Source: an uncultured virus (IMG/VR IMGVR_UViG_3300032323_003315) (taxonomy: Duplodnaviria > Heunggongvirae > Uroviricota > Caudoviricetes). From it: a stretch of 64,000 nt of DNA. This document shows, one piece after another, positions 35,643 through 54,750 of the stretch (position 1 is its first letter; the number at the start of each line of letters is the position of its first letter). Made by a program: the position numbers and the translations under genes. Under the pieces are notes generated by a model. It saw nothing but the letters and a program-made list of their open reading frames with translations, had not been told where the DNA came from and made no database searches. The stretch lies in IMG/VR virus record IMGVR_UViG_3300032323_003315; one strand, given 5' to 3'.

Positions 35643-36268
35643 TCTTTACTTGTGGTCAAAATTTGTGCAAAGGTTTTGGCGTTGTCAATATCGCTTGGAT
35701 AGTGTACGCCATAAAATAGTCGCTGTTCGTTTACATCAAGCACCAATTTATTCATGTCGTTATGTACTTTGGGGTTTATGCTTGATATTGTGTTTGCTAT
35801 AATCTGCGCTTGAAAACTATGCCCCGAAGGAAACGAAGGGCTTAATGCGCTTGAAGTTATTATAGGGAATACAGATTGTTTAAATTCGTAGGCAAGTTGA
35901 TATGGCCTTGGTCTTTGATATTTGTATTTCAGTTTAAGCAACAGGGGTTTTGTACTTTCCATGATGTCTTCTACCAAATCTGTAATATCCCACCGCCATA
36001 AATTATAAACGTAATTTATAATAGACTTGTCTAATTCGCTATCGTACTTGGAATACCTTTTTTTAACCGCTTCGGGTAGGTAGTTGTATTCCTTTTGATA
36101 TTCTACGAGGGCTTTTAATTCGTCTTGAGTGAGCGTAGATACGTTGCTTGGGCATGTTATTTGGAACATTTCGGGCAACAGACTATCGTACTCGCTTTTT
36201 TTCTGCAAGTATTCTAATTGGTCGCGGGTAGGGTTTCCGTAAATAATCTCCTCAAGAGAGTGTTTCAT
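35618..36268 (-). CDS. PAP2/haloperoxidase-superfamily phosphatase
   Basis: KYKYQRPRP, PSFPSGHS, QRLFYGVHYPSD: all three motifs present. Confidence 0.85.
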   Translation of the reverse strand: MKHSLEEIIYGNPTRDQLEYLQKKSEYDSLLPEMFQITCPSNVSTLTQDELKALVEYQKEYNYLPEAVKKRYSKYDSELDKSIINYVYNLWRWDITDLVEDIMESTKPLLLKLKYKYQRPRPYQLAYEFKQSVFPIITSSALSPSFPSGHSFQAQIIANTISSINPKVHNDMNKLVLDVNEQRLFYGVHYPSDIDNAKTFAQILTTSKEWTTKYNI

Positions 36269-36578
36269 ACTTGTCTTTTCTCAATGCGCGTACATTGGTT
36301 TCAAGTTCTTTTATCTTCTTGTCGGTGTTTTTGTTTTCAGCACCTAACAAACTGATAGATTTCCTGTAAAATACAGCCTTGTAAACAAGGGCTATCATAG
36401 TTAAAGAAAATATCCCAATCGCCACCCATTGTATTTTATCGTTGTCCACCATGCCTCCGCTTTCCATCTTTGGTGTTTCTGCGGCTGCGGGCGCGGTTTC
36501 GGGTGCTGCGGGAGCAGCAGGTGTAGCAGGTGCGCTTGGTGTTGCGGTTGCTGCCGCTTCTATTGGAGCATTTGTCAT
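36252..36578 (-). CDS. Membrane protein with Ala/Pro leader and MESGGMV motif
   Basis: Low-complexity N-terminus, motif, TM, coiled coil. Confidence 0.7.
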   Translation of the reverse strand: MTNAPIEAAATATPSAPATPAAPAAPETAPAAAETPKMESGGMVDNDKIQWVAIGIFSLTMIALVYKAVFYRKSISLLGAENKNTDKKIKELETNVRALRKDKYETLS

Positions 36579-36579
36579 A

Positions 36580-36861
36580 TTATTTATTGTTTTGTAGTTC
36601 TTTGCGTACCAAAAGTTCAGATTTCATTGCACCATTCTCTTCTTTGAGTTTTTGGATTTCCACATAGGCTTGTCTTACTTCTAATTCAAGTGCCAAGATA
36701 CGCTCCTCTTGTCTTTTGCTCATTTGTTTCGTATCCCACATCAAATACCCTATTGCCAAAATACATATAAAGAGCATGCCCGTAACAGGGTTCTTTACGA
36801 ATTGGGTAAAGGTAATCGGGGCTGAAATCATATTTTCTTTAACTTCCTTGGTGGCTTCCAT
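36580..36861 (-). CDS. TM plus coiled-coil protein, paralog of 11744..11998
   Basis: PITFTQFVKNPVTGMLFICILAIGYL. Confidence 0.7.
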   Translation of the reverse strand: MEATKEVKENMISAPITFTQFVKNPVTGMLFICILAIGYLMWDTKQMSKRQEERILALELEVRQAYVEIQKLKEENGAMKSELLVRKELQNNK

Positions 36862-37426
36862 TTTCTAAAGCTAATTGTGTTTCTTCTGTTTTAGTTTTTG
36901 TTGGTCGTCCACGCCCTTTTTTTACGATTGCAGCATCTTCATTAGTTGTGTTGTTAGCCATGTTCAGAATTTCTTGCACCTCTTTGGGTATAGAAAGGGG
37001 CTGAAAATCATCTGTTCCTTCTACCTCGCCTACTTCCACCTGTGTTGGGAAATCACTTTCCTTTCTGTCCTCTATGACTGCGTTTGTTATGGCTTCATCA
37101 TCTTTTTTTTTTACGATTGCCTCCTCGTTCTCCAATGGTTCGGGAACAAAGTTGTTTAATTCGTCTTTGAGTGCTTTGTCGGCTTTACGCTTTTCCATGG
37201 CCTTTTTCTCATTGATAAAGAAATTAGCCCCGTTGTAAAGGATTGTGCAGATACCTACACCAATCAAAGACCATTTTACAAAAGCATTTAGATTTTTGCC
37301 CTTAATGCCTGCATAAATCATTACAGGCCCAACATAGATTACGTCCAATAATCTTACAGGTTGTGGGTCATAGAGGAAATACACTTGGTCTGCTTTGTGC
37401 AGGTTTTCATCTTCTTGGTTTGTCAT
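36839..37426 (-). CDS. Two-TM protein with acidic tail and AT-hook-like KGRGRP
   Basis: QPVRLLDVIYVGPVMIYAG...LIGVG.CTILYNG.NF. Confidence 0.7.
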   Translation of the reverse strand: MTNQEDENLHKADQVYFLYDPQPVRLLDVIYVGPVMIYAGIKGKNLNAFVKWSLIGVGICTILYNGANFFINEKKAMEKRKADKALKDELNNFVPEPLENEEAIVKKKDDEAITNAVIEDRKESDFPTQVEVGEVEGTDDFQPLSIPKEVQEILNMANNTTNEDAAIVKKGRGRPTKTKTEETQLALENGSHQGS

Positions 37427-37815
37427 GTTGTTTCAAATTTTGGTAAGTTTTTTAAATGTTGTTTGAGTAAAGCCCCGAACACCGCGCCACCACCTACAAG
37501 CATTGCTGCAAGTTTGGCTTTTTGTTCAAAATTGCCCTTGCTAAAATGGACAATAGCAAACACCAAAGCCCACCATGTAGGCAGGGCATACGAATAGGCT
37601 TGGCCTATCTGCTGTTCAAGTTCCTTTTGCGTAATTTTACCTTCGTCTTTTCGCTTCTGCAAAACGCGCATACGATAGTAAGCCCACCCTGTCGCGGGAG
37701 TAGGCAAAATGTCGCTTATCAATGCACCTGCTAATGCAGAGTACAATAATGCGCTTTGGTAATTTCCGCCCGCAAGGTTCTTGAACTCTTCAGCTATCTT
37801 TTGGGCTTGCTTCAT
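37423..37815 (-). CDS. Multi-pass membrane protein
   Basis: Three hydrophobic segments. Confidence 0.7.
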   Translation of the reverse strand: MKQAQKIAEEFKNLAGGNYQSALLYSALAGALISDILPTPATGWAYYRMRVLQKRKDEGKITQKELEQQIGQAYSYALPTWWALVFAIVHFSKGNFEQKAKLAAMLVGGGAVFGALLKQHLKNLPKFETT

Positions 37816-37821
37816 TATATA

Positions 37822-37923
37822 TTACTTATCGCTTGAGTGCCATGCTTTACCTGCAACCCATACGGTTACAAAAAGTCCTGCAAGACCAAGTACATAAGCC
37901 ATGATTTTTTTTCCGTCTTTCAT
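37822..37923 (-). CDS. 33-aa membrane peptide
   Basis: Not in track; MKDGKKIMAYVLGLAGLFVTVWVAGKAWHSSDK; -7 box about 20 nt upstream. Confidence 0.65.
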   Translation of the reverse strand: MKDGKKIMAYVLGLAGLFVTVWVAGKAWHSSDK

Positions 37924-37967
37924 ATCTGTTTTAATTTAGGTTTTACAAAAATAGGCATTTGAATATT

Positions 37968-38813
37968 TTATACAACAAATTTTTTGTTCTTAATCAATTC
38001 AAGATACCCGCCAATACCTGCCAATCGCTTAACATACGCTTTTGTTACTGCGGGTACGCCCGCTTGGTTCAGCCATACATCGGGAGAATAGTTCTTTTGG
38101 CTTGCGCTCATCCATGGGTTGAAACGGCTAAAATAACCACCATTGTACCCATTGATAACCCAATCTACGCGGATATAATCAGTATCGCCTTCTTTTACGA
38201 TTGATTTTGTTATCAGTTCGTACAAGTACATACAACCTATGTGTACGCCAAATTCGGGCTGTTGTATCATTTTAAGATTATATGCGTTTGTAGGCTTATT
38301 ATATCCTCCGCCTGTGCTTAAAATGTGGGTTGGGTTTGCATAAGTAAGAACACTACCGACTGATTGAGCCATGATTTTAGCCCTACGCAACACCTCGGCT
38401 TGTATTTCTTCCATACTGCCAAGTTTTATTTCCGTCCAATTTAAGGGCGGCAATTCTACGTTTGGTTTTACTCTGAAAGCAGATTTACAAGCATAATAAA
38501 TATACTTGAACTCTTCAATCGTCATGTTATACTTAAATGCGGATTTTATAACCCCGTCAAGAGTGGCTGCGTTAGTCTGCATCATGCCATAAGAAACGCC
38601 GTCTGCCGACCTTACTGCTCTACCACCTGTTTCAATACAAGTAAACGCTAATGCAAAGTATTGGGGAATAGAATGTATATCTGCTATCTTACTTAAAATA
38701 GCACCTGCTCTTTGTTTGGTAAGCGACAATTCGTTTAACGCTTGCGCTTCGGTTCTATCACTACGATAGTTACCCAAAGGGGCTTTAATTTTAACTTCTG
38801 ATAGTTCTCCCAT
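37968..38813 (-). CDS. Lytic transglycosylase (SLT-like) with insertion
   Basis: ALAFTCIETGG, SYGMMQ, IGCMYL, GYNGG, TKAYVKR. Confidence 0.8.
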   Translation of the reverse strand: MGELSEVKIKAPLGNYRSDRTEAQALNELSLTKQRAGAILSKIADIHSIPQYFALAFTCIETGGRAVRSADGVSYGMMQTNAATLDGVIKSAFKYNMTIEEFKYIYYACKSAFRVKPNVELPPLNWTEIKLGSMEEIQAEVLRRAKIMAQSVGSVLTYANPTHILSTGGGYNKPTNAYNLKMIQQPEFGVHIGCMYLYELITKSIVKEGDTDYIRVDWVINGYNGGYFSRFNPWMSASQKNYSPDVWLNQAGVPAVTKAYVKRLAGIGGYLELIKNKKFVV

Positions 38814-38974
38814 TACTCTAATTCTGCATCCTTGATTTTGTCTTTGACTTCGGGATTATATGGCTTTTTGATTTCCTTAACGCGGGGTACAACGTAAAAA
38901 AGTACGAAAGCACCTCCGATAGAAAGTGCTAATGCTAATAGTGTTATACCTATCTGTTTTTTAGAAATTACCAT
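38813..38974 (-). CDS. 53-aa membrane protein
   Basis: Not in track; MVISKKQIGITLLALALSIGGAFVLFYVVPR...; coupled to the SLT gene. Confidence 0.7.
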   Translation of the reverse strand: MVISKKQIGITLLALALSIGGAFVLFYVVPRVKEIKKPYNPEVKDKIKDAELE

Positions 38975-39249
38975 AATATTTTATCCGCAAAATAACCCGC
39001 CGAACCTCTTTTATGCCTATCCTTTTCGTGTCGGCTTTTGTATGCTTTGCGCCGCTTATTTGCAAATTCTATACCCTTGGTCTGCTTGAACGTGGGATAA
39101 TCACCCATGCCCAATGCGCCAATGCTTGCAAGTTTATCGCCCTGTTTGTTGAACACATCAATTTTTTTGCCCTTTACTCTTGAGGGCTTGATGCTAACAC
39201 CAAGTCTTTTAGCTTGCGCGTACGAATGTGCTTTTATGCGGTACGGCAT
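38968..39249 (-). CDS. Small basic protein (DUF5754-like)
   Basis: KKIDVF...SIGALGMGDY...RRKAYKSRH...SAGYFADKILW. Confidence 0.7.
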   Translation of the reverse strand: MPYRIKAHSYAQAKRLGVSIKPSRVKGKKIDVFNKQGDKLASIGALGMGDYPTFKQTKGIEFANKRRKAYKSRHEKDRHKRGSAGYFADKILW

Positions 39250-39255
39250 AAATAT

Positions 39256-39573
39256 TTATTTTTTCCTTTTTGCTTTCTTACTGCTAATAGCACTTGATTT
39301 AGTTGCTTTCTTTTTAGCTTGAATGGGCTTACTTTTAATTGGTTTAGCTTTTTTCAAAGGCGTTTTTTTGGTTTTTGTAGTTTTTGCTGATTTTGCGTTT
39401 GTAGTTGAAATTTTATTCCACCTCTTTACACCATTACTTGCTACCACTACCTTCCAAAGATTTCCGTCTTGCCCCTTCTGCGTATGCCCCGATGAAAATA
39501 ATGTAGCACTTTCTTTTGGAGAAGGTCTTACACCCCTATCATTAAGGTTTCCACCGCTTTTAAAAAACAACAT
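39256..39573 (-). CDS. Basic protein with RPSP.ESAT...KG.DGN.W...NGVKRW module and Lys-rich tail
   Basis: Motif recalled from giant-virus proteins; N-terminal FKSGG. Confidence 0.65.
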   Translation of the reverse strand: MLFFKSGGNLNDRGVRPSPKESATLFSSGHTQKGQDGNLWKVVVASNGVKRWNKISTTNAKSAKTTKTKKTPLKKAKPIKSKPIQAKKKATKSSAISSKKAKRKK

Positions 39574-39584
39574 AATCTTTAGGA

Positions 39585-39776
39585 TTATTTCTGTTTAGGA
39601 TGCTTTCTTGCGGCCTTTTTTCGTTTAGGAGCGTAGGCTTTTTCATGTCCTTCTTTGCTCGCATACATGCGGTCAAGTTTCCATGATGCGCCCGTGTTCA
39701 CGCTTTTCTTTTTTGATTTTTTACTCTTTTTGGGAGTTAACGCTTTTGTGATTTTCTTTAAAATTGAGGTTGCCAT
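39585..39776 (-). CDS. Very basic small protein
   Basis: Lys-rich; candidate DNA-condensing protein. Confidence 0.65.
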   Translation of the reverse strand: MATSILKKITKALTPKKSKKSKKKSVNTGASWKLDRMYASKEGHEKAYAPKRKKAARKHPKQK

Positions 39777-39782
39777 GTTTTT

Positions 39783-40223
39783 TTATTTATTGTTTGACAT
39801 TGTGTTTACTGCTCCGAGAGTTAGCACTAACACTACGCCACCAATAATCCATCCGAGAGCCGCACCCGATTTTTTGGGTTTTGGGTTGTTGTCAGAAGTT
39901 GAACCTGCAACGGGGGCTGCGCCACCTTGAGGTTGAGGTTGAGGTTCGGGTTTTTTGTTGTCGTCGTCGTCAGACTTAACTTGCAATGCCTCAATTTTCT
40001 CTAAAATTTCAGCGTTCAGTTCTTTGCTAACTTCTTCTGATTTTAAAATTGTTGCACGCATTTCTTCCCTTACTTCATCGTCTTCTTCTGTTTTCAGCTC
40101 TTCTTTGGTTTCATCAATGGTTTCGTGAAGTTCTGCCAAATATGAGATTTTGTTTCTCAAGGATTTGGGTAACTCTTCAAATGTCAAACCTTTGGCTTCA
40201 AATGCTTTTTTAATATTGTTCAT
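39783..40223 (-). CDS. Acidic coiled-coil protein with C-terminal TM
   Basis: Ends ALGWIIGGVVLVLTLGAV. Confidence 0.7.
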   Translation of the reverse strand: MNNIKKAFEAKGLTFEELPKSLRNKISYLAELHETIDETKEELKTEEDDEVREEMRATILKSEEVSKELNAEILEKIEALQVKSDDDDNKKPEPQPQPQGGAAPVAGSTSDNNPKPKKSGAALGWIIGGVVLVLTLGAVNTMSNNK

Positions 40224-40276
40224 GTGTTCGTTAAGATATTTGGGTGCTAAATTAAGGCATTTATTCTAAAAAACAA

Positions 40277-40672
40277 TTATTTCCTATATTTTTTCACTTT
40301 CTGCGATATGGCTTTTGGCTGTGCAACGTATTGTTTACCCTTCTTTGTGCCAACTTTTTTAGCCCTTGTCGTAGCAGCGTATTCGCGAGGTGTTAATGCT
40401 TTAATTGCTTTTTCGGGCAAGTATCTTTCTCCCGTTTGTCCGCTTGGTTTACCCGATTTAGTGCGCCACTTTTGCTTGCTCCATTTAACAAGGGAATTAT
40501 CCGCGCTCTTTTTGCCCTTGTAACCGCCTCCTGCATCTTTGTAAAGTTTAACAGCCAACTGCGCTTTGCGTGCAGACCATTCGCCTTTATTGCCTCCCTT
40601 TGAACCTGCTTTAACGCGGGATACTATTCGTTTCCAAAGTGCGGGGTTTGTTTTTACTGCGGTTTCAGCCAT
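40277..40672 (-). CDS. Basic protein (DUF5872-like)
   Basis: GEWSARKAQL..K.YK..GGGY.G...L.KW..QKW.T..GERYLP..A. Confidence 0.75.
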   Translation of the reverse strand: MAETAVKTNPALWKRIVSRVKAGSKGGNKGEWSARKAQLAVKLYKDAGGGYKGKKSADNSLVKWSKQKWRTKSGKPSGQTGERYLPEKAIKALTPREYAATTRAKKVGTKKGKQYVAQPKAISQKVKKYRK

Positions 40673-40688
40673 ATTACTTTTTAGTAAG

Positions 40689-41633
40689 TTATCTTTTTGT
40701 TATATCCTCAATTACCTTGTAGATTTTATCATCTGTGGTCGTAACCATTTCAATGATGTAAAACCTGTCTTTGTTGCCTGTGGCGTTTTGCACAAAGTCC
40801 ATCGCATCGTCTAAACTTTGGGTTAGAAATGCAGTTACCTCTTTGAAGCTACCGCTAAACGCTACACGGGTGTAAGGAACTATTTTAACGCGGCCACCCT
40901 TGGAAAACTTTGGTCTGCCCATAACGCTTGTAGCAACTGCATATCCAACTTGCTTGGCTTCACCCTCGTCATAGGTTTTGCCATACTTGCTTTGATATTT
41001 GGGCTTAACTGATTTACCCTCGTAATGAGCAGCAACCTTTTTAACCAATCGCTCGTATGATGCTTTGCTGCCTTTTTTCTTACGCATGATGCCACCTTTT
41101 TTGTAGCTGCGGAAATAGTACCCGTCAAAATCACGATAGTCGTAAGCTAAATCGCGGCCAAAACTTTCATAGTCAAAGTACCTTTCAAGCGTACCCATAC
41201 CCAAAAGTTCTAAACCACCCATCATATTTATGTAGCCCTCGGCCAATTCGGTATCACTATCATATTGACCTTCGTACCTTTCGTCTATCCATTCGCCCAC
41301 ATCGTCGGGAGCGTATTCTCTGATAATATCTGCAACAACATCCATAGGGATATTTTTTTCCTCTGAAACCTTGTAAGCATTGATAAGTTTATCAAAACCT
41401 GCCGCGTTCATACCTTCGTCGTAAAGGCTGTCGGGTATGTTTTCATGGTCGGGGAACATAAGTTCGTCCATCTGCATGCCATACTTCTTTTCCCACATGC
41501 GTATTTTTTTACGGAAATAGGAAATAACCGCTTCCCCGTCTTCAAACTGCGACAAGTCTATCCATTCTCCGTCAAGATTGCCGTTGTTATATAGTTCGTA
41601 TGTTGTTAAATATATCCTTGGTGTATCTGCCAT
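40689..41633 (-). CDS. ardA: ArdA antirestriction domain fused via xKGG linkers to two further small domains
   Basis: RIYLTTYELYNNGNLDGEWIDL...YEGQYDS...YFDYESFGRDL; acidic domain ends at RSYKKGG. Confidence 0.8.
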   Translation of the reverse strand: MADTPRIYLTTYELYNNGNLDGEWIDLSQFEDGEAVISYFRKKIRMWEKKYGMQMDELMFPDHENIPDSLYDEGMNAAGFDKLINAYKVSEEKNIPMDVVADIIREYAPDDVGEWIDERYEGQYDSDTELAEGYINMMGGLELLGMGTLERYFDYESFGRDLAYDYRDFDGYYFRSYKKGGIMRKKKGSKASYERLVKKVAAHYEGKSVKPKYQSKYGKTYDEGEAKQVGYAVATSVMGRPKFSKGGRVKIVPYTRVAFSGSFKEVTAFLTQSLDDAMDFVQNATGNKDRFYIIEMVTTTDDKIYKVIEDITKR

Positions 41634-41675: not shown

Positions 41676-43058
41676 CTACTTTTTCTTAAAAGGGTTTGAA
41701 GCTATTTTACCGCCTTTGGCAAATTTCTCGGTTTTAATAGAATAGTAAAACGCTTCTTTTGGGCTTTTTTCAAATAAGCTATACATGTGCTTTTTAGCTT
41801 CATTTTCTGTTGCAAAACCACCTTTCACAACTTTACCATTTCTGTTATCCATAATAGAATAATTTACAACACCGCCTTTGGAAAATTCCTCATATCCTTT
41901 CAAATCGTTCAAATCTGTACCTATTGGCCTTAAGCCATAAGCCTCTCCGCTTAAACCATAATCAAAAGTATATCCTTCGGCTTCCATTTGTTTAAGGACT
42001 TTTTCTAATTCGGCATAATCTCCATCCATGAAGACATCTTGGTTATTATCATAAATGCGCCTCAATTTAGGAGGCATATTGTCATAATCCTCAAACAAGT
42101 CTTTCATTCCCCCATCACCGAATAAGTCTTTTTTTTTTAAAGTTCCACCTTTGGCGAATTTGTTACGCATGCTATAAAGACGGTTATATTCAGCACCATT
42201 GTCTTTGCTAAAATTGTTTTCCGCTTCATTCAGAGCCTTATAGTAGTTTGCCCTATTTTCAGAAATAAGTGCTAAAAGACGATTGTATTCAGCACCGTTG
42301 TCTTTGCTAAAGTTATTTTCCGCTTCGTTCAACTGTGCATATAAATCAGCAGGGTCATGAATTTTACCGCCTTTGGCAAAATTTCCTGCGCCATGAAGCA
42401 TGCCGCCAAGTTTCAGATATGGGTATCCTTTCCTGTTTCTGTCTGTTCTGTTCTCGCGGTACTCGTAATATGTTTTGCCCGACTTTTTAGCGGTACGCTT
42501 TCCAATAGGAAGTGCTTTACGCGGTGCGTCGCGCTCAATATCAGTAGCACCTTTTTTGATGGGGTGTTTAGCCAAAAACGCTTGTAGCTTTTTGTACTGC
42601 TTGTTAGCGTTCTTTACAGCACTTTTCTTTTCCTCTTGTAATATTTTGTTGGCGCGTTTAATAGCTTCTTGCCACGTTTCCTCGCCCTTCTTATATATTT
42701 TTTGTGCCAACAACATTTTATCAGCACGCTTGGTAGGTTTTGCAGATGCTGTGCTTTTGCCTTTCTTTGGCTGCACGATACTTGCTTGCGCTACCTTTTT
42801 AGCAATCGCTTTTGGCGTTTTGGGTTCGGGTGCTTTAGCTACCTTGCTTTTAATGCTTTCGGGGTACTTTTCAGCAATGTTTGAGTACAGCCTTTCCATA
42901 CTGTTCTCTGCTGCTTTGTACGCTTCTTTGCTATCAGCATCGGTAGCGTTTTTCAGTTTGCTGTCATTCAGATAGCCTGCTATCTCTTTTACTTTCTCTA
43001 CCGCCTTTTCGGGTAGTTTGGACAAATCAATGTCTTTGTATTTTTCTATTGGTGTCAT
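41676..43058 (-). CDS. Modular basic protein with six xxGG motifs
   Basis: LKLGG, FAKGG x3, FGDGG, FSKGG; G+TYYEYRENR.D module; internal 19-aa duplication. Confidence 0.75.
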   Translation of the reverse strand: MTPIEKYKDIDLSKLPEKAVEKVKEIAGYLNDSKLKNATDADSKEAYKAAENSMERLYSNIAEKYPESIKSKVAKAPEPKTPKAIAKKVAQASIVQPKKGKSTASAKPTKRADKMLLAQKIYKKGEETWQEAIKRANKILQEEKKSAVKNANKQYKKLQAFLAKHPIKKGATDIERDAPRKALPIGKRTAKKSGKTYYEYRENRTDRNRKGYPYLKLGGMLHGAGNFAKGGKIHDPADLYAQLNEAENNFSKDNGAEYNRLLALISENRANYYKALNEAENNFSKDNGAEYNRLYSMRNKFAKGGTLKKKDLFGDGGMKDLFEDYDNMPPKLRRIYDNNQDVFMDGDYAELEKVLKQMEAEGYTFDYGLSGEAYGLRPIGTDLNDLKGYEEFSKGGVVNYSIMDNRNGKVVKGGFATENEAKKHMYSLFEKSPKEAFYYSIKTEKFAKGGKIASNPFKKK

Positions 43059-43071: not shown

Positions 43072-46000
43072 TTAAATATCGTCAAGGTCAAGTTCGTCAA
43101 GTTTATTTTTTATTGAGGCCGCTTTTGTAGGCTTTGGTTGTTTGGGTTCTTTAGTTGTTGTGGTTTTAGGTTTCGTAGTTTTTGTCTTCGGAGGTTCGGG
43201 TGCAGGTGGTGCAGGCGGTGTGGGAGGAGTAGCAGGAGGCGTTGTTCCCGCGCCACGATACAACAGCAAATCAACAATGTCTAAATAATCGTCTGCGTCA
43301 AAAAACCACAAATCGTCAAACTCAAATTGATAGTTATTGACCGCATCAGTAAATTCATTACCATAATTATCATGTAAAGCAAGAACATCAATTTTATTCG
43401 CGTATTTTGCAAGTTTGAGTTTCAGTTCTTTGTATTCTTTTCCTGCCCCCGCATTTGCAAAACCTACTATAAAAAATTCTTTTTGGGGGTCTGTAACAGT
43501 TGGATAGCCTGCTCTAAACGATGCCGTTACAATTTGTCCGTCTGCACTTCCGCCATAATATTCAATAAACGACTTCAAATAGCTCTCCCGTAGAAAATTA
43601 TTCCATGGGTTGTCCACCCATTTAAAGTTTGAAGTTGGTGCAGGCGGTGTGGGTGTTTGTGCATATTTATCAATGAACTTTTGCCTAAATTCTTCTGCAT
43701 TATCAAATGGAACTATTACGGTATAATCATATTCTCCTCCTTGCGCTATTTCGGTTAATGGCTTATACAAAGAATACAAGGGCGCAGTTTTGTATTTAGT
43801 TTCCTCGTCTTGCACTTCCTGTAAATATGCTTCATATTCTTTGTTTGGTGGCATATTTGGCGGGTAATACGCGATAATATAATATTCTTTTATACCTGTT
43901 GGCGTTTTAATGCCAAACAATCTATTTTTAATCGTAAAATCACTTACGGTAATTCCCAAAGATTGTTTTATAGCCTCTATGTCTGCTAAATTGATTGTAT
44001 CCCAATCACTTCTCCATTCAAACGGCTCGTTTTGCGTTGTAGTCGGCGTTGTAGAAACAGGCAAAATAGGGAACATAAACATTTGCTCAAACTCCTGCAA
44101 CCTGTCTTTTGGAACAAATATGGTATGGTCATAATTAGGGTCAATACTGAAATAATCTAATTCCACATATTCGTTTGCTAAATCTTTTGTCTTATATACA
44201 TATTTCTCTGTTTGTGCTGTTTTGTTTACAAAATCCATATATTTAGCACTTCTACCAAGTTTATAGATTGCAGGCGTAAACGCTAAAGCTATATATTCAT
44301 TGCTTTGCCCGTTTTTTAGTATTTTAAATGTTCTGTATTGTATATTGAAATCGGGATATACTATATCAAACCCTTGCTTAAATTCATTACGCATCTGTTC
44401 AGTACCCCAATCCAATAAACCCGAAGTCCATTCAAAACCTTCCCCTTTAGTTGGCGGTGTTGGCAAAACCTTTGGCTGCCTTTTCTTTGTGGTTTTTGTA
44501 GCAGGAATTACCATATTCTGCATATATGGTGCATCTGTGTTCCCCCACTCAATAGGTAACGATTTAAAATAGTCTATGAAACTCTTTTTGCCTTCCTCGG
44601 TGTAAAAATAATTGGTTACGTTGCTATTATTTCTACCAAGAATATCATGAAAATAATCCATCTTATCCTCATAGCTTAAAACTTTGCTTGTACTTTTGCT
44701 GACAAACATATTTTTTAAAGGATTTTTTTTGATAATTTCGTATGTGGTAATTTCTTGCTCAAATATTTTTACTTTTATGTTTTCGTATGCTTGTTCGGGT
44801 GTTTGAAATATGCCGAAAAAGTTAGCGTACTTTAATTGACCTATTGCAACATTAGTGAGAACAATAGGCAATATCTGTTTTTCTTTTAAAGAGGGAAAAG
44901 TTTTACTGTAAGGCTGTATTTGATTGTTACATAAATGTACTCTCCATAGATTATACATAATAGCATCGCCTATCAATCCATGAAAGTAATCTTTATCATC
45001 GCTTATTTGTATTCTTGTACTACCTTTTTCATTTCTTGTAAACCTAAAACTACCACTTGCGCTGTATTCGTTAGTTAGCCTTATATCATAGTCATAATCG
45101 CTTGAATATTTGTTCATCAAAACAATAGGCGGCTCTAAATTATGCTGATAGCGAAAGAAAAACCATAAATTTTCAATATTTCTGCTTCCACCATCACCCA
45201 TAAGGGTTCGCATAATATCTTTTTCTTCGCCTAACTCAAAACTTGGTGCGGGTGCGACACCATCATACATAAACGCGCTTTTATACCACAAAGCAACATC
45301 TGTTGGTAAATTATGATTTACCACATAATTACTTATTGTATTAACTATATTATTATAAAATTCTTTTTTTGTAGTTTCCCAAGTAAACATGGTCTTACGC
45401 ACGTTTGCATCGCTTTTACCGCTTTGAGCAGCAGGTTGTACGCCTCTTTCAATCAGATAGTTTACATAGCTTAATTTTACGATTTCTTTGATAGGCTCTA
45501 TTATGCTTGGGTCTTTTTTCTGCAAATCGCTTATCCTGCCCCAATCCAATTTGTTAACAGCCGACAAAAATGTATCGTCATACTCCTCTCCCAAAATTGA
45601 CCTTAATTCGTCAAATTGGTTTGTTTTGCTTGAAGCTGCACTTGTGCTACTACCCGACAAATAAAACTCCTTGATGATTTTTCTCTCATTGAAGTACCCG
45701 TCATGCACCTCTACTTGGTCATATAAATATTGTTTAGTAACCTTATAGATATTAAAAACTACTGTGTTTCCATTCACGAAACTTTCCAATTCTTTATATC
45801 TTAAAAGACTATAACAAACTATGGGATTGCCCTTTTTGTCATAAGCTATATAGCTATCATATATAAGAAAAAGTATATCACTAAATTTGAACTTTAAAAC
45901 ATCCCCTACACCAAACTTGTCCTTTTCGTCATATTGGTCGTGCTTCTGCAAACAATTAAAATTTCCTGCTCCGTAATACGCAATAGGCGGCAACGTAAAA

Positions 46001-47166
46001 AATTGTGTCTTTTTCGGCACTAACCTCTGAATGTGAGGCGTTTCTGACATGCCGAAAGCGGTCAAATTATTAGCAGGCTCATTTGTTGTAACAATTTTAG
46101 AATATTCTGCATAATCCAACTCCTTGCCGCAATTCATGTGCAATTTCACATAAGAAATCATATCTCCTTCCTTTAGAACCCTTTTATCAGTTCTAATAGC
46201 AAGATATTGTATAGCTGAATAATCAGAAAAGAAACCGCCATTCGCATATTGCCCTTCTTCGTCATTTGCATTTACCAAACATATTTTATCAAAAAAAATA
46301 TTACCTGTATTTTGTAACAACGGATAGTTTAAAGGTTGATAATTTATATCTGAAAAAGTATTGTAATTTGGTTTTTCGGGAAGATTGTTATTAGTCTTTA
46401 TTAAATCAAACAAATCATCCGATACCCCTTGATGCTGTGTTAGCATGGCATACGCATCCTGCTTTTCACCCGCAGCTATCGTAGATACTTTTGTAAAAGT
46501 AGTAGGTGGTGCTATTGCTTTTGGTTTTTCCTGCTTTGTATAAGCTATCCCTGCTATCTTGGGCATATCTATGCTCCAATATGCTAATTCAGCATTGCTG
46601 ACAACCATGTTTGACATGGTGTTGCCTGCTGTATCTCCAACTACATCACCCGAAGGTGTGCTTTTTAAAATAGACTTGACACCATCCCTTGAATTTGCTA
46701 CCATAGCAGCATAGTCCATCACATCTTTTAGATTTACGCCATAGGGGTAATATCTTATGGCTTTGGGCGCATTGGCTTTTACAGCATCGGTAGATACCTC
46801 TCGGCTGAAAAAACCCAAAACCATGTAGTCCTTATTCTTTTTCCCGTCATAGTAACTATCCCCAACACCAAGTTTCATTTTATCCGAGGGAACGTAGGTG
46901 CTTATTAAATCTTCGTCTTTTATTTGGATATACTGAAAAAATATAAGCCCTTTGCTTTTGATATATTCATTTGCCTTTTTGGTGTTATTTATAGTGCTTA
47001 CTGTTGAAGCATCATAGCCATTTATGATGTATTGATTGTTACCAATAACAGTATTTGGTAGCGTAGCTATGCTTAACACCAACGCTTTTCCATCCAAATC
47101 CTTTTCAGTCAATGGAACAAAATATTCACTTCTGTTTTTCAGTATATATAGAGAGCCTTTTTTCAT
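43072..47166 (-). CDS. Large multidomain protein (1364 aa) with three repeated C-terminal domains
   Basis: Long ORF; F(E/K)W-initiated ~130-aa units separated by Pro/Thr linkers. Confidence 0.8.
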   Translation of the reverse strand: MKKGSLYILKNRSEYFVPLTEKDLDGKALVLSIATLPNTVIGNNQYIINGYDASTVSTINNTKKANEYIKSKGLIFFQYIQIKDEDLISTYVPSDKMKLGVGDSYYDGKKNKDYMVLGFFSREVSTDAVKANAPKAIRYYPYGVNLKDVMDYAAMVANSRDGVKSILKSTPSGDVVGDTAGNTMSNMVVSNAELAYWSIDMPKIAGIAYTKQEKPKAIAPPTTFTKVSTIAAGEKQDAYAMLTQHQGVSDDLFDLIKTNNNLPEKPNYNTFSDINYQPLNYPLLQNTGNIFFDKICLVNANDEEGQYANGGFFSDYSAIQYLAIRTDKRVLKEGDMISYVKLHMNCGKELDYAEYSKIVTTNEPANNLTAFGMSETPHIQRLVPKKTQFFTLPPIAYYGAGNFNCLQKHDQYDEKDKFGVGDVLKFKFSDILFLIYDSYIAYDKKGNPIVCYSLLRYKELESFVNGNTVVFNIYKVTKQYLYDQVEVHDGYFNERKIIKEFYLSGSSTSAASSKTNQFDELRSILGEEYDDTFLSAVNKLDWGRISDLQKKDPSIIEPIKEIVKLSYVNYLIERGVQPAAQSGKSDANVRKTMFTWETTKKEFYNNIVNTISNYVVNHNLPTDVALWYKSAFMYDGVAPAPSFELGEEKDIMRTLMGDGGSRNIENLWFFFRYQHNLEPPIVLMNKYSSDYDYDIRLTNEYSASGSFRFTRNEKGSTRIQISDDKDYFHGLIGDAIMYNLWRVHLCNNQIQPYSKTFPSLKEKQILPIVLTNVAIGQLKYANFFGIFQTPEQAYENIKVKIFEQEITTYEIIKKNPLKNMFVSKSTSKVLSYEDKMDYFHDILGRNNSNVTNYFYTEEGKKSFIDYFKSLPIEWGNTDAPYMQNMVIPATKTTKKRQPKVLPTPPTKGEGFEWTSGLLDWGTEQMRNEFKQGFDIVYPDFNIQYRTFKILKNGQSNEYIALAFTPAIYKLGRSAKYMDFVNKTAQTEKYVYKTKDLANEYVELDYFSIDPNYDHTIFVPKDRLQEFEQMFMFPILPVSTTPTTTQNEPFEWRSDWDTINLADIEAIKQSLGITVSDFTIKNRLFGIKTPTGIKEYYIIAYYPPNMPPNKEYEAYLQEVQDEETKYKTAPLYSLYKPLTEIAQGGEYDYTVIVPFDNAEEFRQKFIDKYAQTPTPPAPTSNFKWVDNPWNNFLRESYLKSFIEYYGGSADGQIVTASFRAGYPTVTDPQKEFFIVGFANAGAGKEYKELKLKLAKYANKIDVLALHDNYGNEFTDAVNNYQFEFDDLWFFDADDYLDIVDLLLYRGAGTTPPATPPTPPAPPAPEPPKTKTTKPKTTTTKEPKQPKPTKAASIKNKLDELDLDDI

Positions 47167-47462
47167 TCGTATGTTTTTATCAATTCTAATGTTGAGATAT
47201 ATTTTAACCTCTCATTCAAAAAACCTATGGCATTTGCCAAAGGCGTAACTTTTCCTTTTTTGTCAATTATGCTGATGCCAAACTCATTCAGCATGTGGTT
47301 TATGTTTGTCGTGGTAAATTCAGAAACCAACAGGATGCTGTCCTTTTCCTTGTCGTAATATAGCTTGTGCGGCTTGCATGTAAAAGCCATATTAGCCCTG
47401 TGCTTGGTGAAGCTATCCACTATATCCTTTATGGTATCTTGCTGCTTTTTTGTTAGGTTCAT
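47163..47462 (-). CDS. Hypothetical protein
   Basis: ATGA-coupled on both sides. Confidence 0.6.
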   Translation of the reverse strand: MNLTKKQQDTIKDIVDSFTKHRANMAFTCKPHKLYYDKEKDSILLVSEFTTTNINHMLNEFGISIIDKKGKVTPLANAIGFLNERLKYISTLELIKTYE

Positions 47463-48946
47463 ATCATTATCCTGTTAATTGTTTCGGTAATTTCCGATAA
47501 CCGCTTGGCGGCTTTGTCAACATCCTCTTTGCTATCAGCATAAGGCTTTTCTGCGTCGGGCAAGTTGTTATTAAAAGGTACAGTAAGAAACGCATCGCCA
47601 ATTATTTCCGCCAACCTATCGCGTATATCTGTATCGGTTTGCCCCGCATCTCTTTCACGTTTAATAATTCTACGCAAAGATTTTTCGGGCTTTGTAGCAA
47701 GCACTAATTCTGCCATGTCGCTAATACGATTAAATTCCTGTTTTATAGCATTTTCATTACTGCTCCAATCGTTTTGCGGGTTAGGCAATCCTCCGACAAT
47801 AAACAATTCCTTATTTTTTACTTTGGTTTTGTTTACGCCCTTGGTTTTTTGTTCCATCAAATAGTTTTTGTATAGCGTAAAACCCCGTTCATAATCTCTT
47901 TTCTTGTAAAGAGTAGAACCATAACCCGTTCTTTCCTTACCATATCTTTTACGAGAAATGCCTTCCGAATTTTGCCACATGGCATATCTGAAAAACCTTG
48001 GGTCTGCGATAGCGGTAGAAATAGCCTGCAAGTCTATGGGTGCGCCATATTCCTTGGCTACCCAAGAATAATAAACTTGGTCGCCACTAACAGAATATCC
48101 ACGCAATCCATAAATCCTTACTTTTGAACCTGCTTGTTCAAGTTGCTGTGCGAGCATAATAATAGGCGTTACTTTTGCCATCATGCCCATGCTGTTTAAT
48201 TCGCCCAAACCACCCGCAATTACAAATATGTCCACATACTGCGGTTCACCTCCTTTGTTGGGGCGTTTCAGATAAATCTTTTTGGTTCTCGTTCCAAAGT
48301 ACAATCTGTACTCTTTACCATCCCTACCAATGCCTTTATTTTGACTTGCCGCAAAAAAGTTGTCGCCAACGGATTTCAAAAACACATTTGGAACATTTTT
48401 AAGCATGTCAAAAGTACCCTTTTGCTGCCTGCGAACCTTGAATGTTTTAGGGTTAGGATTGCTTGCAGAGGCGATTTCTTTATAATAGAAGTTTTTATTG
48501 GTTTCAGAAACGCTGCCCTTTTCCATGTCGGCAAGCACATCTAATTCCTCAATATACCATTCAACTACCCTATAAAGCGTAGGTGCTGCAAGTCCAAAAC
48601 TGAAAATACCCGTTGCATCTTCTGTGGCTTTGAGCCTATCCTTTTGCAAATTACCACCCAAGTCAAGTTTGGCTTGCATACTCTCTTTGGTGTCTTTGTA
48701 ATTAGTAAGGGCTTGTTGGTTTACATATTTACTTATCCTGTTAATATCCAACTGCTCGTCCAACGGCTGCGAAGTATCAACCTCGTACCATTCCGCATTG
48801 CTTGAAACGTCGCTTAACTTGTAATCTGAACTATCAACATAATTTACGGTATTTGTAGAGTTTCCATTTCTATCAAGGCGCAATCCTTCTTGACCCTCTC
48901 GGATAAAGTCGTTAATGCTATCCCACATTCCAAATAAATACGCCAT
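47459..48946 (-). CDS. Divergent vWA-like partner of MoxR ATPase
   Basis: Directly downstream of the AAA gene; YVDIFV...LEQAG.KVRIY...VAKEY..P.D...FFR pattern; MIDAS not canonical. Confidence 0.5.
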   Translation of the reverse strand: MAYLFGMWDSINDFIREGQEGLRLDRNGNSTNTVNYVDSSDYKLSDVSSNAEWYEVDTSQPLDEQLDINRISKYVNQQALTNYKDTKESMQAKLDLGGNLQKDRLKATEDATGIFSFGLAAPTLYRVVEWYIEELDVLADMEKGSVSETNKNFYYKEIASASNPNPKTFKVRRQQKGTFDMLKNVPNVFLKSVGDNFFAASQNKGIGRDGKEYRLYFGTRTKKIYLKRPNKGGEPQYVDIFVIAGGLGELNSMGMMAKVTPIIMLAQQLEQAGSKVRIYGLRGYSVSGDQVYYSWVAKEYGAPIDLQAISTAIADPRFFRYAMWQNSEGISRKRYGKERTGYGSTLYKKRDYERGFTLYKNYLMEQKTKGVNKTKVKNKELFIVGGLPNPQNDWSSNENAIKQEFNRISDMAELVLATKPEKSLRRIIKRERDAGQTDTDIRDRLAEIIGDAFLTVPFNNNLPDAEKPYADSKEDVDKAAKRLSEITETINRIMI

Positions 48947-48959
48947 GGGGATTTACCGA

Positions 48960-50375
48960 TTAGAATATCTTGTTACCGTAAGTAGTGTACCAATTTTTTA
49001 TGATTTCCTCGGCTCTTTCTATATCCTCTTTTGAAGACAAAGCCTCCAATGGTCTTGTATTTACTTCGGGTATAGTTACTTCCAAAAATTCCTGTATCTC
49101 TTGGGGCATAATATTTGTCCTTTGAGTGGGGGTAAATAAGTTCATAAAACTTTCAATACCATCCTGCAAGGTTTTTGGGCGTTTGTTTTGCTCATCCAAT
49201 GGCAACATGGCGTTTAAGCGATACTGAATGTATGTATCACGCAAATTGGTCATAATACGCATGGAGATAAACGCTTCGTTGGTGTAATTATTGGTTTCAA
49301 TGCTCTCTCTCAAATCAATTAAGAAATTGAACAGGAAAGCCATATTGATACCTGTAATAGTTCTGCCACCAACTTCAATGGTTATGTTACTCAATACCTG
49401 CTTGTATTCAAGTTCGTAATCGTAGAACACGCGATAGGTACTACCCGCAAAACGGTCTTGAAGCGAAGCATCCTGCGCGAAGTTTGCCGTATAATTAGGG
49501 TCGGGGCGCAACAATAATGTGTTGCCCGTACCAATAATCATAAGCCTTGGTTTGCCATTGTCATAGCTTGCAAGCGGTATTCTTTCGTTTCTGCCGTTCT
49601 TAATTTCCCTTGGCAACATTCTACCCGTTTGTGGATTGAAAATTGGCTTATCTTTCAAAGACGAAAGCGCATCGTTCATCAAACCCGCAGTATTTGGGTC
49701 AAGTTTTGGTAATTCGTCAATTAGCAGGATAGCCCCCTCGTAAGGCTTATTGTTTTCGGGGTTAATGCCGAGATTAAGATTTCCCCATGCTTCAATAAGC
49801 GTTCCCTCTTGATAGCCGTCAATAGTCTGACCGCCAATAATTTCAATCGGAGAAGTATATTGGTTACAGTTGATTGTAAGAACCTTGTAATTGATAGCCC
49901 TACCCATGTATTTTGCCATGGCGGTTTTACCTGTACCCGCAGGCCCGTAGAGATATACGTTGTTACCCGCTTGCCAATCGGACATAAGAACATAAAACAA
50001 AGCACGCTCACCCACTACGGTAGCAATAGGCGATGTAGCTACTTGACCACCCGACATAACACTTGCCATTTGAATAGTAAGTGCTTTGGTTTTGTCAATG
50101 TAGTCCATAACGTCGGGAGCAAGTTGCGATAGAACAATTTGGCTACCTACAAAAACCCTTTCAGCTATGCGCTCTACTTCATCTTGGCTTAAACCTGCTT
50201 CGGTTATAAGTTTTTGGTTTAATTCCTGCAAATAATCAACAAGAAGCCCTGTTGATGTGCTTGAAGTTCCTTTTAATCTATCAAGTTGGTTCTGTAACAG
50301 CGTTACTTGATAAGGCTCAAGACCCCCTGCTGCCAAAAGGTCTTCTATCTTTTTTATATCGTCTTGATTAGTCAT
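48960..50375 (-). CDS. MoxR/CbbQ/CobS-like AAA+ ATPase
   Basis: YLYGPAGTGKT, LLIDELPKLDPN, GTGNT, QDASLQDRF, ISMR. Confidence 0.9.
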   Translation of the reverse strand: MTNQDDIKKIEDLLAAGGLEPYQVTLLQNQLDRLKGTSSTSTGLLVDYLQELNQKLITEAGLSQDEVERIAERVFVGSQIVLSQLAPDVMDYIDKTKALTIQMASVMSGGQVATSPIATVVGERALFYVLMSDWQAGNNVYLYGPAGTGKTAMAKYMGRAINYKVLTINCNQYTSPIEIIGGQTIDGYQEGTLIEAWGNLNLGINPENNKPYEGAILLIDELPKLDPNTAGLMNDALSSLKDKPIFNPQTGRMLPREIKNGRNERIPLASYDNGKPRLMIIGTGNTLLLRPDPNYTANFAQDASLQDRFAGSTYRVFYDYELEYKQVLSNITIEVGGRTITGINMAFLFNFLIDLRESIETNNYTNEAFISMRIMTNLRDTYIQYRLNAMLPLDEQNKRPKTLQDGIESFMNLFTPTQRTNIMPQEIQEFLEVTIPEVNTRPLEALSSKEDIERAEEIIKNWYTTYGNKIF

Positions 50376-51456: not shown

Positions 51457-51485
51457 AAATTATATGCAATCTTACTACTTTTATT

Positions 51486-53885
51486 CTACAAAACAAAGAA
51501 GTCGTCGTTGAATTTGTTGCTAACCTCTTTCAATATACCGCCCTTTGCAAAGCCCGCATTTTCTACTTGCGTATTGAAATGCTCCGCACTTGCCCATTTG
51601 ATTTGCTCTTGGCGCAATACCATATAGCTTCCTGTTACGTTTTTCTCCCCATTGATTATGTCCTGCGGGTTGTCTTCGTACATCAAAATACCATCGTAAA
51701 AGGTTTTTTCGCGCATGTAGTTAAGCAGGGCTGTATTGAATTTACGAATATAAACCCAAAACTGCATTGGGGTATCAAGGAAAGCGTTTAGTTGGTCTAT
51801 TCCCGCGCTTGCATACCTATCGTAATTTGGTAAAGCTATTTCACGGGGTATGTTATATTCATTCATAAGAACATCGCCAATGTTGCGTAATGGAACGGCA
51901 TCAATTCCAAAAGCCATTACGTCTATTGGGTTTTTAATGTCCAAAAACACTTGGTACATGAAGCCATCGCCATAAAGATTGGCAAACCATTGAGAGTAAG
52001 AACGATTGTCTGCAAAATAAGCAGCAGGGAAATCGCTAAAACGCCATGCCATAAAATCCGCACGCGAACCATGATAACAAACCAAAGGCTCTTTTGTGCG
52101 GGGATTTATTGCTTTGCTTACGCCGCCATAGTTTCCTGTTCTGTATGCCATTTGCCAATCTCCGAACCACGATATGAAATTGTCTGTGCGTACTTTGTGC
52201 CATTGCTTATTTGTAAGTTCAGTAGGCACGCCGTTAATGCTCATCAGCGAAGTATCGGGCGTTTCTGTTTCTAAACGCTCCTGTATAAATGTATTACCAA
52301 GTTTGTTAAGCAGTTCTAATCCTGTATCTGTTTCTAAAAGGTATTTATCCTTTGCTTCGCGCAGTTCGGCAAGTTTACGGTCAATCTGCACTTGTTTGTC
52401 GGCATTGGTTTTATCCACCAAGCCGCGCAAAATGCTGTATTTGCTAATCTCTGCTTCTGCCGCTTTGGAAAGCAATTCATATTTAACCTTATCGCGGGTG
52501 TCCTTTTTGCGTACTTTACGAATAGCCTTATCTAAATCGGTGATAGTTTCATTGACAAAACGATATTCGGGTTCGCCTTTGGTTATATGGCTGCGTAATA
52601 TCAAAGTATGACCATAAAATACACCTGTTTCATAATTTACATATACTTTACCATTATATTCAAAAATTATATTTTGATAATTATAATCGCCACCTATTTG
52701 TACTTTAATACCTAATAATTTAATACGCAATGTGTTACCACCATCAATAGATATATTTTTTGGTTCTATAATTCTATTTTCGTTGGCAATATAATCGTAA
52801 TATGTGTTTTCATTTCGCTCGTAAGATACAACTTCAAAAAAACGCTCTGACCCCTCAAATTCTATATCAGCACTATCGTTTACGCAAAAAGCATAAGGAA
52901 CATTAAAAGACTTACCTGTATTTATTCGCCTTACCCTTTCGCCATCATTATTTGGATATAAATATTCACATAAGTGAGTATTAGAAGGTTCATTTTTTCC
53001 ATCTTTGAACACTATACACATTTGCCCTATTTTATCCGCGTAGTTGATTACGTTAGGAATGTTTTGTGGATATACAATTTCTTGGCTTGTGCTAAAATCA
53101 GCAGGTAATTCAACCAATGGATTAGGCATTACAATTATTCTATCTGACGCACCATATTTAGTTGCGTCAAAAACAAAACTATTATATTCGTCATTTATAA
53201 TCCTTGAGAGTTTTATACCTATGACTGCTGTATTATTATTGTCATAAATAAAACCTTTTACTTGAAAGGGTATATAAAAATTGTAACCATATTTTGCTAT
53301 AACTTCATCGTAATAATTACCAACATCTGAAAACAAATCCCTATCAGAGTTTTCCTCGTAGTATGGTTTAACAAATACGAAGCTACCAATAAAAATACTT
53401 TCATCAAAAGCATAACTATCCGTAGTTGTAGTATTACGCGCCGTGCAATCTATGTATAACGTATTCTCCTTATTAGACGCGTTAATTGCTACATACACAG
53501 TAGTATCAACATCATCGCGAAAACTTGCAACAACTTGTTTACCTGCATAATAGGTTGCAAATGGCTTGTTGTCCTCTGTACCTCCCAAAAACCTGCCACC
53601 ATCACCAAATTTATGCTTGGAGATTTCTCCGCCCTCTTTGAAGGCTACGCCTCCATGGTCGCTGTTTAGCTTGCTCAAAATTTCTTTTGGTGTCATTTGC
53701 TTGCCCTCAAAAGTGTATTTCTGATTGCTTTCCACCGCAGGCTTTGTAATTACTACCTCTCCGCCCTCTACTTCTATGGGTTCATTGGTGTCAACATTGA
53801 TACCTTTTATACCACCCTCGCTATGGGGCTTTCCAACAAGATAACCGCCTTTTTTAGCGTCCTTGGTCTTTATTGCATTTTTCAT
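51486..53885 (-). CDS. Polyvalent protein with C-terminal ADP-ribosyltransferase-like (ART-PolyVal) domain
   Basis: VRTDNFISWFGDW...EPLVCYHGS...YFAD...VFLDIKNP...YDG...QIK; N-terminal GKPHSEGGI..IEVEGGE; four xxGG motifs. Confidence 0.75.
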   Translation of the reverse strand: MKNAIKTKDAKKGGYLVGKPHSEGGIKGINVDTNEPIEVEGGEVVITKPAVESNQKYTFEGKQMTPKEILSKLNSDHGGVAFKEGGEISKHKFGDGGRFLGGTEDNKPFATYYAGKQVVASFRDDVDTTVYVAINASNKENTLYIDCTARNTTTTDSYAFDESIFIGSFVFVKPYYEENSDRDLFSDVGNYYDEVIAKYGYNFYIPFQVKGFIYDNNNTAVIGIKLSRIINDEYNSFVFDATKYGASDRIIVMPNPLVELPADFSTSQEIVYPQNIPNVINYADKIGQMCIVFKDGKNEPSNTHLCEYLYPNNDGERVRRINTGKSFNVPYAFCVNDSADIEFEGSERFFEVVSYERNENTYYDYIANENRIIEPKNISIDGGNTLRIKLLGIKVQIGGDYNYQNIIFEYNGKVYVNYETGVFYGHTLILRSHITKGEPEYRFVNETITDLDKAIRKVRKKDTRDKVKYELLSKAAEAEISKYSILRGLVDKTNADKQVQIDRKLAELREAKDKYLLETDTGLELLNKLGNTFIQERLETETPDTSLMSINGVPTELTNKQWHKVRTDNFISWFGDWQMAYRTGNYGGVSKAINPRTKEPLVCYHGSRADFMAWRFSDFPAAYFADNRSYSQWFANLYGDGFMYQVFLDIKNPIDVMAFGIDAVPLRNIGDVLMNEYNIPREIALPNYDRYASAGIDQLNAFLDTPMQFWVYIRKFNTALLNYMREKTFYDGILMYEDNPQDIINGEKNVTGSYMVLRQEQIKWASAEHFNTQVENAGFAKGGILKEVSNKFNDDFFVL

Positions 53886-53886
53886 T

Positions 53887-54750
53887 TTAAATATCGTCTA
53901 ATGTTAAATTGGAATAATCGGGTGGGAATATACCACCCTTTTCATACTTGGCATCAATGTAAAACAAATCTCCCTCATACTCGTATCCTATCGCTTCCTG
54001 CCCCCATTCGTTTGCCCATGCAGCTATTTGCTTCATAAGTTTGGCTTTGTTTTCCTTGAAACTTTCGGGTGTGGCATACGAAACTACCCTTACTACTTTC
54101 TCGTTCACCAATTTGCCATTACTTGCCATATACCCACCGATATAATTTGCTGATGTATAACCACCAAACATATTTGCAAGCGTTCTTTTTACAATATCCA
54201 CCCTGCTATCCATTTCTTTTTGGGAAACCATTTCGCTTACGTTGGATGTGCTTGGAACATAAACGGCCATTTCTACGGGCAAGTGGAACATTTTGTTTTG
54301 CTTTGGCAAGCGTGGTACTCTACCGCCCGCAGCCATAACTTCCGCCATGCCGCCTTTTGCAAGGTTCAGTTGTTTGAGCCTGCTGTAATAATCAAGCGTT
54401 TCGTAAATATGGTCTTGTGCAATAGACATGGCGATAAGAATATCGTCCGTATGCTCAAGTTCGTGTTTCATGCCTTCTTCCAAAAAAGGTAATAGTTGTT
54501 CTTCGGTGATATTATGCTTATCCATAATCTCTCCGATAGTGTGTTTTCCTATCTTTCTTTTTGGTCTGATAAGGTCAGTATATGTGTTTTTATCATCCAT
54601 TTGGGTGTCTGTATTTTCGGAGGTAAGTAATATTTTGTGTGGTGTAAAATGATGATTTACCGTTGCATTGTAAGCGTCCTGCAAATCCATGTTTTGCCCA
54701 ATAGGATAGGCTTTTTGGTTGTTTTTATCGTCTATAAATAACGCTATCAT
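53887..54750 (-). CDS. Modular protein with DUF5661-like domain and xxGG motifs
   Basis: GMKHELEHTDD..IA..IAQDH..E..DYYSRL, then LAKGG, MAAGG, YEKGG. Confidence 0.7.
   Translation of the reverse strand: MIALFIDDKNNQKAYPIGQNMDLQDAYNATVNHHFTPHKILLTSENTDTQMDDKNTYTDLIRPKRKIGKHTIGEIMDKHNITEEQLLPFLEEGMKHELEHTDDILIAMSIAQDHIYETLDYYSRLKQLNLAKGGMAEVMAAGGRVPRLPKQNKMFHLPVEMAVYVPSTSNVSEMVSQKEMDSRVDIVKRTLANMFGGYTSANYIGGYMASNGKLVNEKVVRVVSYATPESFKENKAKLMKQIAAWANEWGQEAIGYEYEGDLFYIDAKYEKGGIFPPDYSNLTLDDI

Follow-up and report, generated by a model that had tools for sequence, protein, structure and literature searches.

What does a short Gly-Gly motif do that recurs in basic, multi-domain proteins of an uncultured virus (IMG/VR record IMGVR_UViG_3300032323_003315)? 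The window analysed here comprises bases 1-64,000 of this 71,007-base virus record, for which CheckV gave a completeness of 96%. Using the putative capsid gene as the query, 45 related loci were obtained; 31 records were searched, and 21 of these were taken nearly whole. A preliminary description of the window had claimed about 18 sites of the form [FYLM]xxGG, and all 18 were present in the open reading frames (ORFs) named, with 17 fitting the pattern (AKKGG does not). One additional strong site, YANGG, was found at residue 307 of ORF 43072-47166. We favor, at a probability of about 0.4, a reading of the sequences in which a small module encoded in the same gene cluster, the GE module, would read this motif (hereafter the tag), load the tagged proteins as cargo and probably cut them at the seams between their cassettes.

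The loose pattern [FYLM]xxGG was found to be unspecific, with 53 matches in the 71 kb genome compared with a mean of 21 and a maximum of 30 in shuffled sequences, and many of the matches fell within membrane helices or fibres rich in Gly. When 1,974 GG sites of the relatives were tallied without bias, Tyr, Met or Phe stood out at position -3, where Leu was mostly background, Ala at -2 (4.0-fold) and Asp or Lys at -1, and the second residue after GG was hydrophobic. The consensus of the tag is the seven-residue [FYM(L)]-[AEK]-[DKN]-G-G-x-[IVLMTF]. The enrichment check proposed along with the preliminary description was performed with a position matrix trained on 396 tag sites from the relatives only, and the motif passed it: 17 sites in the genome scored at least 8 bits (null mean 2.4, maximum 6, 50 shuffles) and 12 scored at least 10 bits (null mean 0.84, maximum 3), while FKSGG of ORF 39256 was weak at 7.7 bits. 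At 10 bits or more, all 22 genomes, on some of which the matrix was trained, exceeded their own shuffle maximum, G001 barely so (2 vs 1). The 409 tags were encoded by 295 different 15-mers, and therefore selection acts on the protein; the motif is genuine. The Shine-Dalgarno-like codon pair GGA GGT was depleted at tags (3.9% vs 14.2%), whereas GGC GGA was over-used (16.6% vs 5.4%). An origin of the tag as a Shine-Dalgarno sequence or a fixed DNA repeat was rejected based on the synonymous diversity and the GGA GGT depletion.

The proposal that the motif marks domain boundaries was borne out in the carriers of the window, where five annotated domains (ArdA, DUF5661, phrog_3543, phrog_37263 and ART-PolyVal; positions in the table) end 2-14 residues ahead of a tag. 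With the tags masked, 31.5% of 1,546 internal BLAST alignment ends lay within 12 residues of a tag, compared with 15.8% when positions were drawn at random and 9-10% when shifted dummy sites were used. Chains of 1,200-2,800 residues in the relatives contained 12-25 tags between shuffled cassettes, examples being 2,781 residues with 25 tags, 1,828 with 21 and 2,836 with 24. In carriers with at least five tags, 271 of the 486 inter-tag gaps measured 50-150 residues and 103 were tandem (≤25 residues), and the median non-tandem spacing was 82 residues. Complete small domains fill single gaps, such as LPD11 at 654-721, which is bracketed by tags at 645 and 725. The 432 inter-tag segments fell into 70 families and 190 singletons without a partner in the set; the 70 families recur in different orders among proteins, and a few were also found as separate ORFs. 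Unrelated conflict domains (ART, ArdA, LPD) are combined in one chain, and this likeness to polyvalent proteins extends to the effector domains themselves (ART-PolyVal, ArdA, LPD11; Iyer et al. 2017, PMC5512222). The tag could also be an inert linker or turn that recombination of cassettes left behind and that has no partner. Duplicated seams would be expected to give the over-use of GGC GGA as well as tandem copies, but the high synonymous diversity, the GGA GGT depletion, and the fact that the tag is conserved also at extreme C-terminal positions and in proteins of a single domain encoded away from the cluster make this the least probable of the explanations considered.

The candidate reader, the GE module, is flanked here by AKKGGYL and FKEGGEI. 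It has about 75 residues and was confidently predicted as a small alpha/beta model (predicted local distance difference test, pLDDT, 79.5), and seven residues were invariant over 54 sequences (G14, G18, H21, G25, E38, E43 and N74). Exactly one copy, flanked by tags, was found in 21 of the 31 relatives, including all 13 that are at least 90% complete. Homologues were widespread, a 50%-clustered library yielding 1,433 representatives at E≤0.001, and distant copies begin with a tag and mostly end with one; 28 loci of such distant homologues contained 106 tags, the modules' own flanking tags included, vs 6.4 in shuffles. The module also occurs as stand-alone basic proteins of 68-77 residues. In marine tailed phages it adjoins tag-rich basic proteins and terminase- and portal-sized genes, identities that were read by eye, and we read these surroundings as head clusters. 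Module-bearing chains in other viruses (P0028, P0029, P0041 and others) contained beta-clamp, N6-methylase, GNAT and NUDIX domains, and some proteins carried two GE modules, the second without the His part. Searches of the PDB by sequence and by fold gave no solved match for the module, and tblastn of the window copy against 50,697 phage records gave no match. No description of the tag or the module was found in the literature, with subscription journals and bioRxiv supplements outside the scope of the search.

By sequence comparison, the GE module is similar to the C-termini of tape-measure proteins. Two metagenomic proteins that carry it close to their C terminus were tape-measure proteins based on a PHROG profile (phrog_3547, E 3.6e-8), and tblastn with a metagenomic copy matched 83 phage records at E≤1 (best E 6e-4), the named ones among the matches listed being tape-measure proteins. 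Six tape-measure stretches scored 18-53 bits on a hidden Markov model (HMM) built without them. The predicted fold of the module matched phage proteins of 800-1,350 residues in BFVD (template modelling score, TM, 0.55-0.60), with named tape-measure proteins at weaker ranks. In lambda gpH, FATGG (733-737), HRGE (752-755) and YATGG (778-782) form a tag-module-tag arrangement. The 733-782 stretch matched 1,214 phage records, one of which scored 21 bits on an independent GE profile, and gpH itself scored 4.7 bits, rising above 300 of 300 shuffles only on a GE profile enlarged with the six tape-measure stretches. Alignment by hhalign of shallow GE profiles to gpH and to the crAss001 cargo protein gp45 was not significant, and one HMM picked neither. 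According to PMC12617516, about 14 kDa is cut off this C-terminal end of gpH at an unknown site and by an unknown catalyst, and a cut at FATGG would give computed products of 80.1 and 12.2 kDa. Siphophage tape-measure C-termini (lambda gpH/gpHC, PMC12617516) thus share the order tag, GE-type module, tag, and appear homologous by profile and predicted fold; in the window, by contrast, the module heads a cargo chain, no tail genes were detected, and the tag is spread across many proteins. The link of the module to the gpH cleavage region is weak and transitive. It is rather doubtful, though conceivable from these likenesses, that the GE module is a miniature peptidase found across virus realms, which would dice polyproteins injected by tailless viruses and by crAss-like phages into separate effectors, and whose tape-measure copy would turn lambda gpH into gpH*.

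Another parallel is the virion cargo C1/gp45 of crAss001 (Bayfield et al. 2023, PMC10172136; PDB 7qog chain M). It has repeated x-A-x-G-G sites, and its portal-bound domain contains a stretch similar to the GE module, G-S-H...G-I...V-E-x-G-E-V-V (H450, E472 and E475). When the GE HMM was compared with 300 shuffles, the DAC17 gp45 homologue beat all of them, and the Dulem41 score was reached by one. Neither a motif nor proteolysis is mentioned for gp45 in the parts of PMC10172136 used here, and an 'SGG motif' in the crAss cargo was discarded, with 0 occurrences in that article. The two systems differ in that crAss001 is a tailed virus with a portal, and its cargo family and fold were unmatched here: the PF25725 (crAss_CARG1) HMM gave 0 matches at E≤10 in this genome, and the fold of gp45 425-552 was not among the matches of the GE module (hhalign E 0.009, probability 4%). 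A test for crAss_CARG1 in the ESM Atlas gave a nearest named cluster at 0.88, which is a lead only.

In the reading that we favor, the tag, which is found at seams as well as at the two ends of multi-cassette proteins, would be read by the GE module from the same cluster. The module would gather the tagged proteins into the particle during assembly and probably cleave them at the seams, delivering separate effectors to the host. The cut bond would be either the one that follows GG or the one that joins the hydrophobic residue to Ala. Binding of the tag by the module is suggested by their co-occurrence and by the tags flanking the module, and peptidase activity by the invariant His, Glu, Glu and Asn together with the lambda gpH parallel. 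Because of their ArdA, ART-PolyVal and LPD11 content and the parallel with crAss001 gp45, we infer that the carriers are virion proteins that are packaged and injected. Several observations weigh against cutting by the module. Its core of about 55-75 residues is small for a peptidase and matches no solved fold, and only the last Glu is constant across the tape-measure homologues. The gpH score was reached by 59 shuffles on an earlier GE profile, and the crAss001 gp45 score by 4 of 300. More than a fifth of the inter-tag gaps (103 of 486) are tandem, and T5 pb2 is cut after R1127 (PMC10038345). The gp45 domain resolved in crAss001 virions (425-552) begins A-F-G-G-W (PMC10172136), so the GG-W bond at the A425 site is intact. 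This argues against cleavage behind GG there; a cut before Ala remains compatible.

The intact, portal-bound AFGG-W also fits docking without cutting. Here the tag would be a handle bound by the GE module or by some other partner in the virion, intact chains would be packaged and ejected, and multi-tag chains with many module copies would form a multivalent core of polyvalent proteins. All 15 orthologues of ORF 4332-5387 stop two (14 orthologues) or three (one) residues after GG, their last conserved position, as would be expected of a handle more than of a release site. The last tag lies within 30 residues of the C terminus in 26 of 103 carriers, and the small membrane protein 36252-36578 has its tag on an arm. 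Because of the tags in these two ORFs, the seven-mer is probably recognised on both sides of GG. Tandem tags only 6-10 residues apart would likewise suit docking, as would the uncut delivery of N4 vRNAP and ArdC described in PMC5512222. However, loading needs only one or two tags, yet nearly every seam has one; the His and Glu residues of the module are invariant; and lambda gpH is known to be cleaved at the end that bears the module (PMC12617516). We consider docking nearly as likely as loading with cutting by the GE module.

Virion proteins labelled by a short consensus for loading, maturation or both are known from adenovirus, African swine fever virus (ASFV) and T4, the last with its capsid-targeting sequence and gp21, and adenain and ASFV pS273R cut at GG|X sites. 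The tag is comparable as a short consensus on probable virion proteins, and hydrophobic-x-x-Gly-Gly sites, as expected for enzymes of clan CE (Ulp1/adenain-like), lie at cassette boundaries here. It differs from these systems in the conserved hydrophobic residue two positions after GG, in being both internal and C-terminal, and in that no clan CE protease was found. The preliminary description saw no Ulp1-like protease in the window, and none was found in five near-complete genomes either: Peptidase_C48 (PF02902), C5 (PF00770) and C57 (PF03290) had no match at E≤1, although a very remote member could escape. The adenovirus/ASFV analogy, taken as membership, is therefore not supported. Both options of the preliminary interpretation, a cut site and a packaging tag, were retained, and the tags do bound cassettes of polyvalent-type proteins.

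A protease other than the GE module, either an unrecognised clan CE enzyme or the zincin-like protein 26353-27132, could nevertheless cut the tag, which we consider improbable. The resemblance to GG|X sites would suit the former. The zincin is present in 31 of 31 relatives, and the cited part of PMC5512222 proposes delivery of polyvalent proteins with DNA, their proteolytic release, and zincins as their processors. It lies, however, among carriers of another motif, FxNAxG, and not among tag carriers, and no zincin homologue was found in five tailed-phage records with tags and GE module (two of them at least 90% complete) by a single-sequence query, which remote zincins could escape. An in-chain zincin MPTase is present in about 36% of polyvalent proteins, and no fixed seam tag is mentioned in that part of PMC5512222; here the zincin is a separate gene, the seam tag is fixed, and the constant partner is a non-zincin module. 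With a narrow HExxH pattern, only the stand-alone protein of 259-262 residues was found in each of the 22 genomes, divergent in-chain copies being possible. The FxNAxG motif in the putative capsid arm (31880-32581 and orthologues) often reads F-F-[RNG]-A-[DE]-G-G, and its A-[DE]-G core, shared with the tag, would suit a common protease; the two motifs may be related. The claim that the carriers of the two motifs are largely distinct held in part: only one of 2,275 proteins had both, but about two would be expected by chance (44 and 109 carriers), and the two sets are thus separate but not demonstrably exclusive.

With the tag as a rule, large virion proteins now called 'hypothetical' could be split into small cassettes, hundreds of them, as anti-defence candidates. 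The GE module becomes a named, testable candidate reader, and the range of the tag now includes a group that is apparently tailless. The site and the agent of lambda gpH cleavage become directly testable, and another reading is offered for crAss001 gp45, parts of which lie in both head and tail. Being short and portable, a tag for loading and release would also help to place chosen proteins in phage particles.

Table. Tag carriers, GE module and zincin-like protein in the window (tag and domain positions in residues; base coordinates of tags in brackets).
Feature	Coordinates	Strand	Content
Carrier, 799 aa	51486..53885	-	GE module; middle without assignment; tags 82 and 93 (53589-53609); ART-PolyVal 599-770; tag 779 (51531-51551)
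GE module, candidate reader/cutter	53622..53858	-	aa 10-88 of ORF 51486-53885, at start of ORF
Carrier, 287 aa	53887..54750	-	DUF5661 74-128; tags 130 and 139; phrog_3543 cassette 154-267; tag 269
Basic carrier, 460 aa	41676..43058	-	six tags: 215, 227, 301, 313, 392, 446; phrog_37263 314-378 between tags 313 and 392
Carrier, 314 aa	40689..41633	-	ArdA 4-175; tag 177 (41085-41105); conserved basic cassette 188-250; tag 243 (40887-40907)
Orphan, 1364 aa	43072..47166	-	single strong tag YANGGFF, 307 (46228-46248)
Membrane protein, 108 aa	36252..36578	-	Pro/Ala-rich arm, tag (36447-36467), then hydrophobic helix
Very basic protein, 105 aa	39256..39573	-	weak N-terminal tag (39544-39564)
Replication-block protein, 351 aa	4332..5387	+	C-terminal tag (5364-5384)
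Stand-alone HExxH zincin-like protein, rival cutter	26353..27132	-	

The conserved N-terminal module of the protein 41676-43058 heads the long cassette chains of the relatives (a segment family in 16 genomes), and in three relatives the N-terminal domain of 39256-39573 forms the final cassette of longer proteins. The tag-like site of the membrane protein 36252-36578 is kept in most orthologues and is degenerate or absent in G015-G018, G020 and G022. Adjoining it is a PAP2-family protein (35618-36268), core in 21 of 21 relatives. A stand-alone copy of the ART-PolyVal cassette, ending FSAGGLI, lies beyond the window (G000, 70191-70763). Small basic proteins are encoded at 38968-39249 and 40277-40672 (DUF5754-like and phrog_14910), and in tailed marine phages (L194 and L208) look-alikes of these are either fused to tag-rich proteins or encoded next to them. 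Within the carrier cluster, 47459-50375 encodes a MoxR/CobS-like AAA ATPase and an adjoining gene of 495 residues, both present in 17 of 21 relatives, and this pair is possibly an unfoldase or chaperone for the cargo.

The window contains genes of bacterial viruses (RecT, RusA, ArdA and a GH19 endolysin). The virus is probably tailless, because it encodes a HerA-like ATPase and numerous small membrane-type proteins, because no Terminase_6N match and no portal, tail or major capsid family was found, and because inverted terminal repeats occur in 3 of 31 relatives. Terminase_6N was absent from five near-complete genomes, portal, tail and major capsid families from 65 proteins scanned with PHROGs, and prohead-protease and HK97-type head Pfam families from 92 window proteins, the last 7 kb lying outside the Pfam scan. 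The HerA-like ATPase (32905-33723) was assigned by a weak Pfam match, and over 150 residues it also matches a PHROG whose label is terminase large subunit; searches with it and with the zincin against PDB sequences gave nothing useful. The predicted model of the putative capsid protein (31880-32581) was unusable (pLDDT 35), the Atlas gave nothing for it, and tblastn against the 50,697 phage records gave no match. A paralogue is encoded at 12000-12872, and the relatives have several shorter ones. The GE module and tags were also found on a 132 kb contig of a metagenome-assembled genome (L128) binned with Sediminibacterium, which is either a possible hint of the host or mis-binning. A sulfotransferase, APS kinase and cytidylyltransferase cluster (15044-18037) and a glycosyltransferase cluster (55012-62233) probably serve virion or DNA modification.

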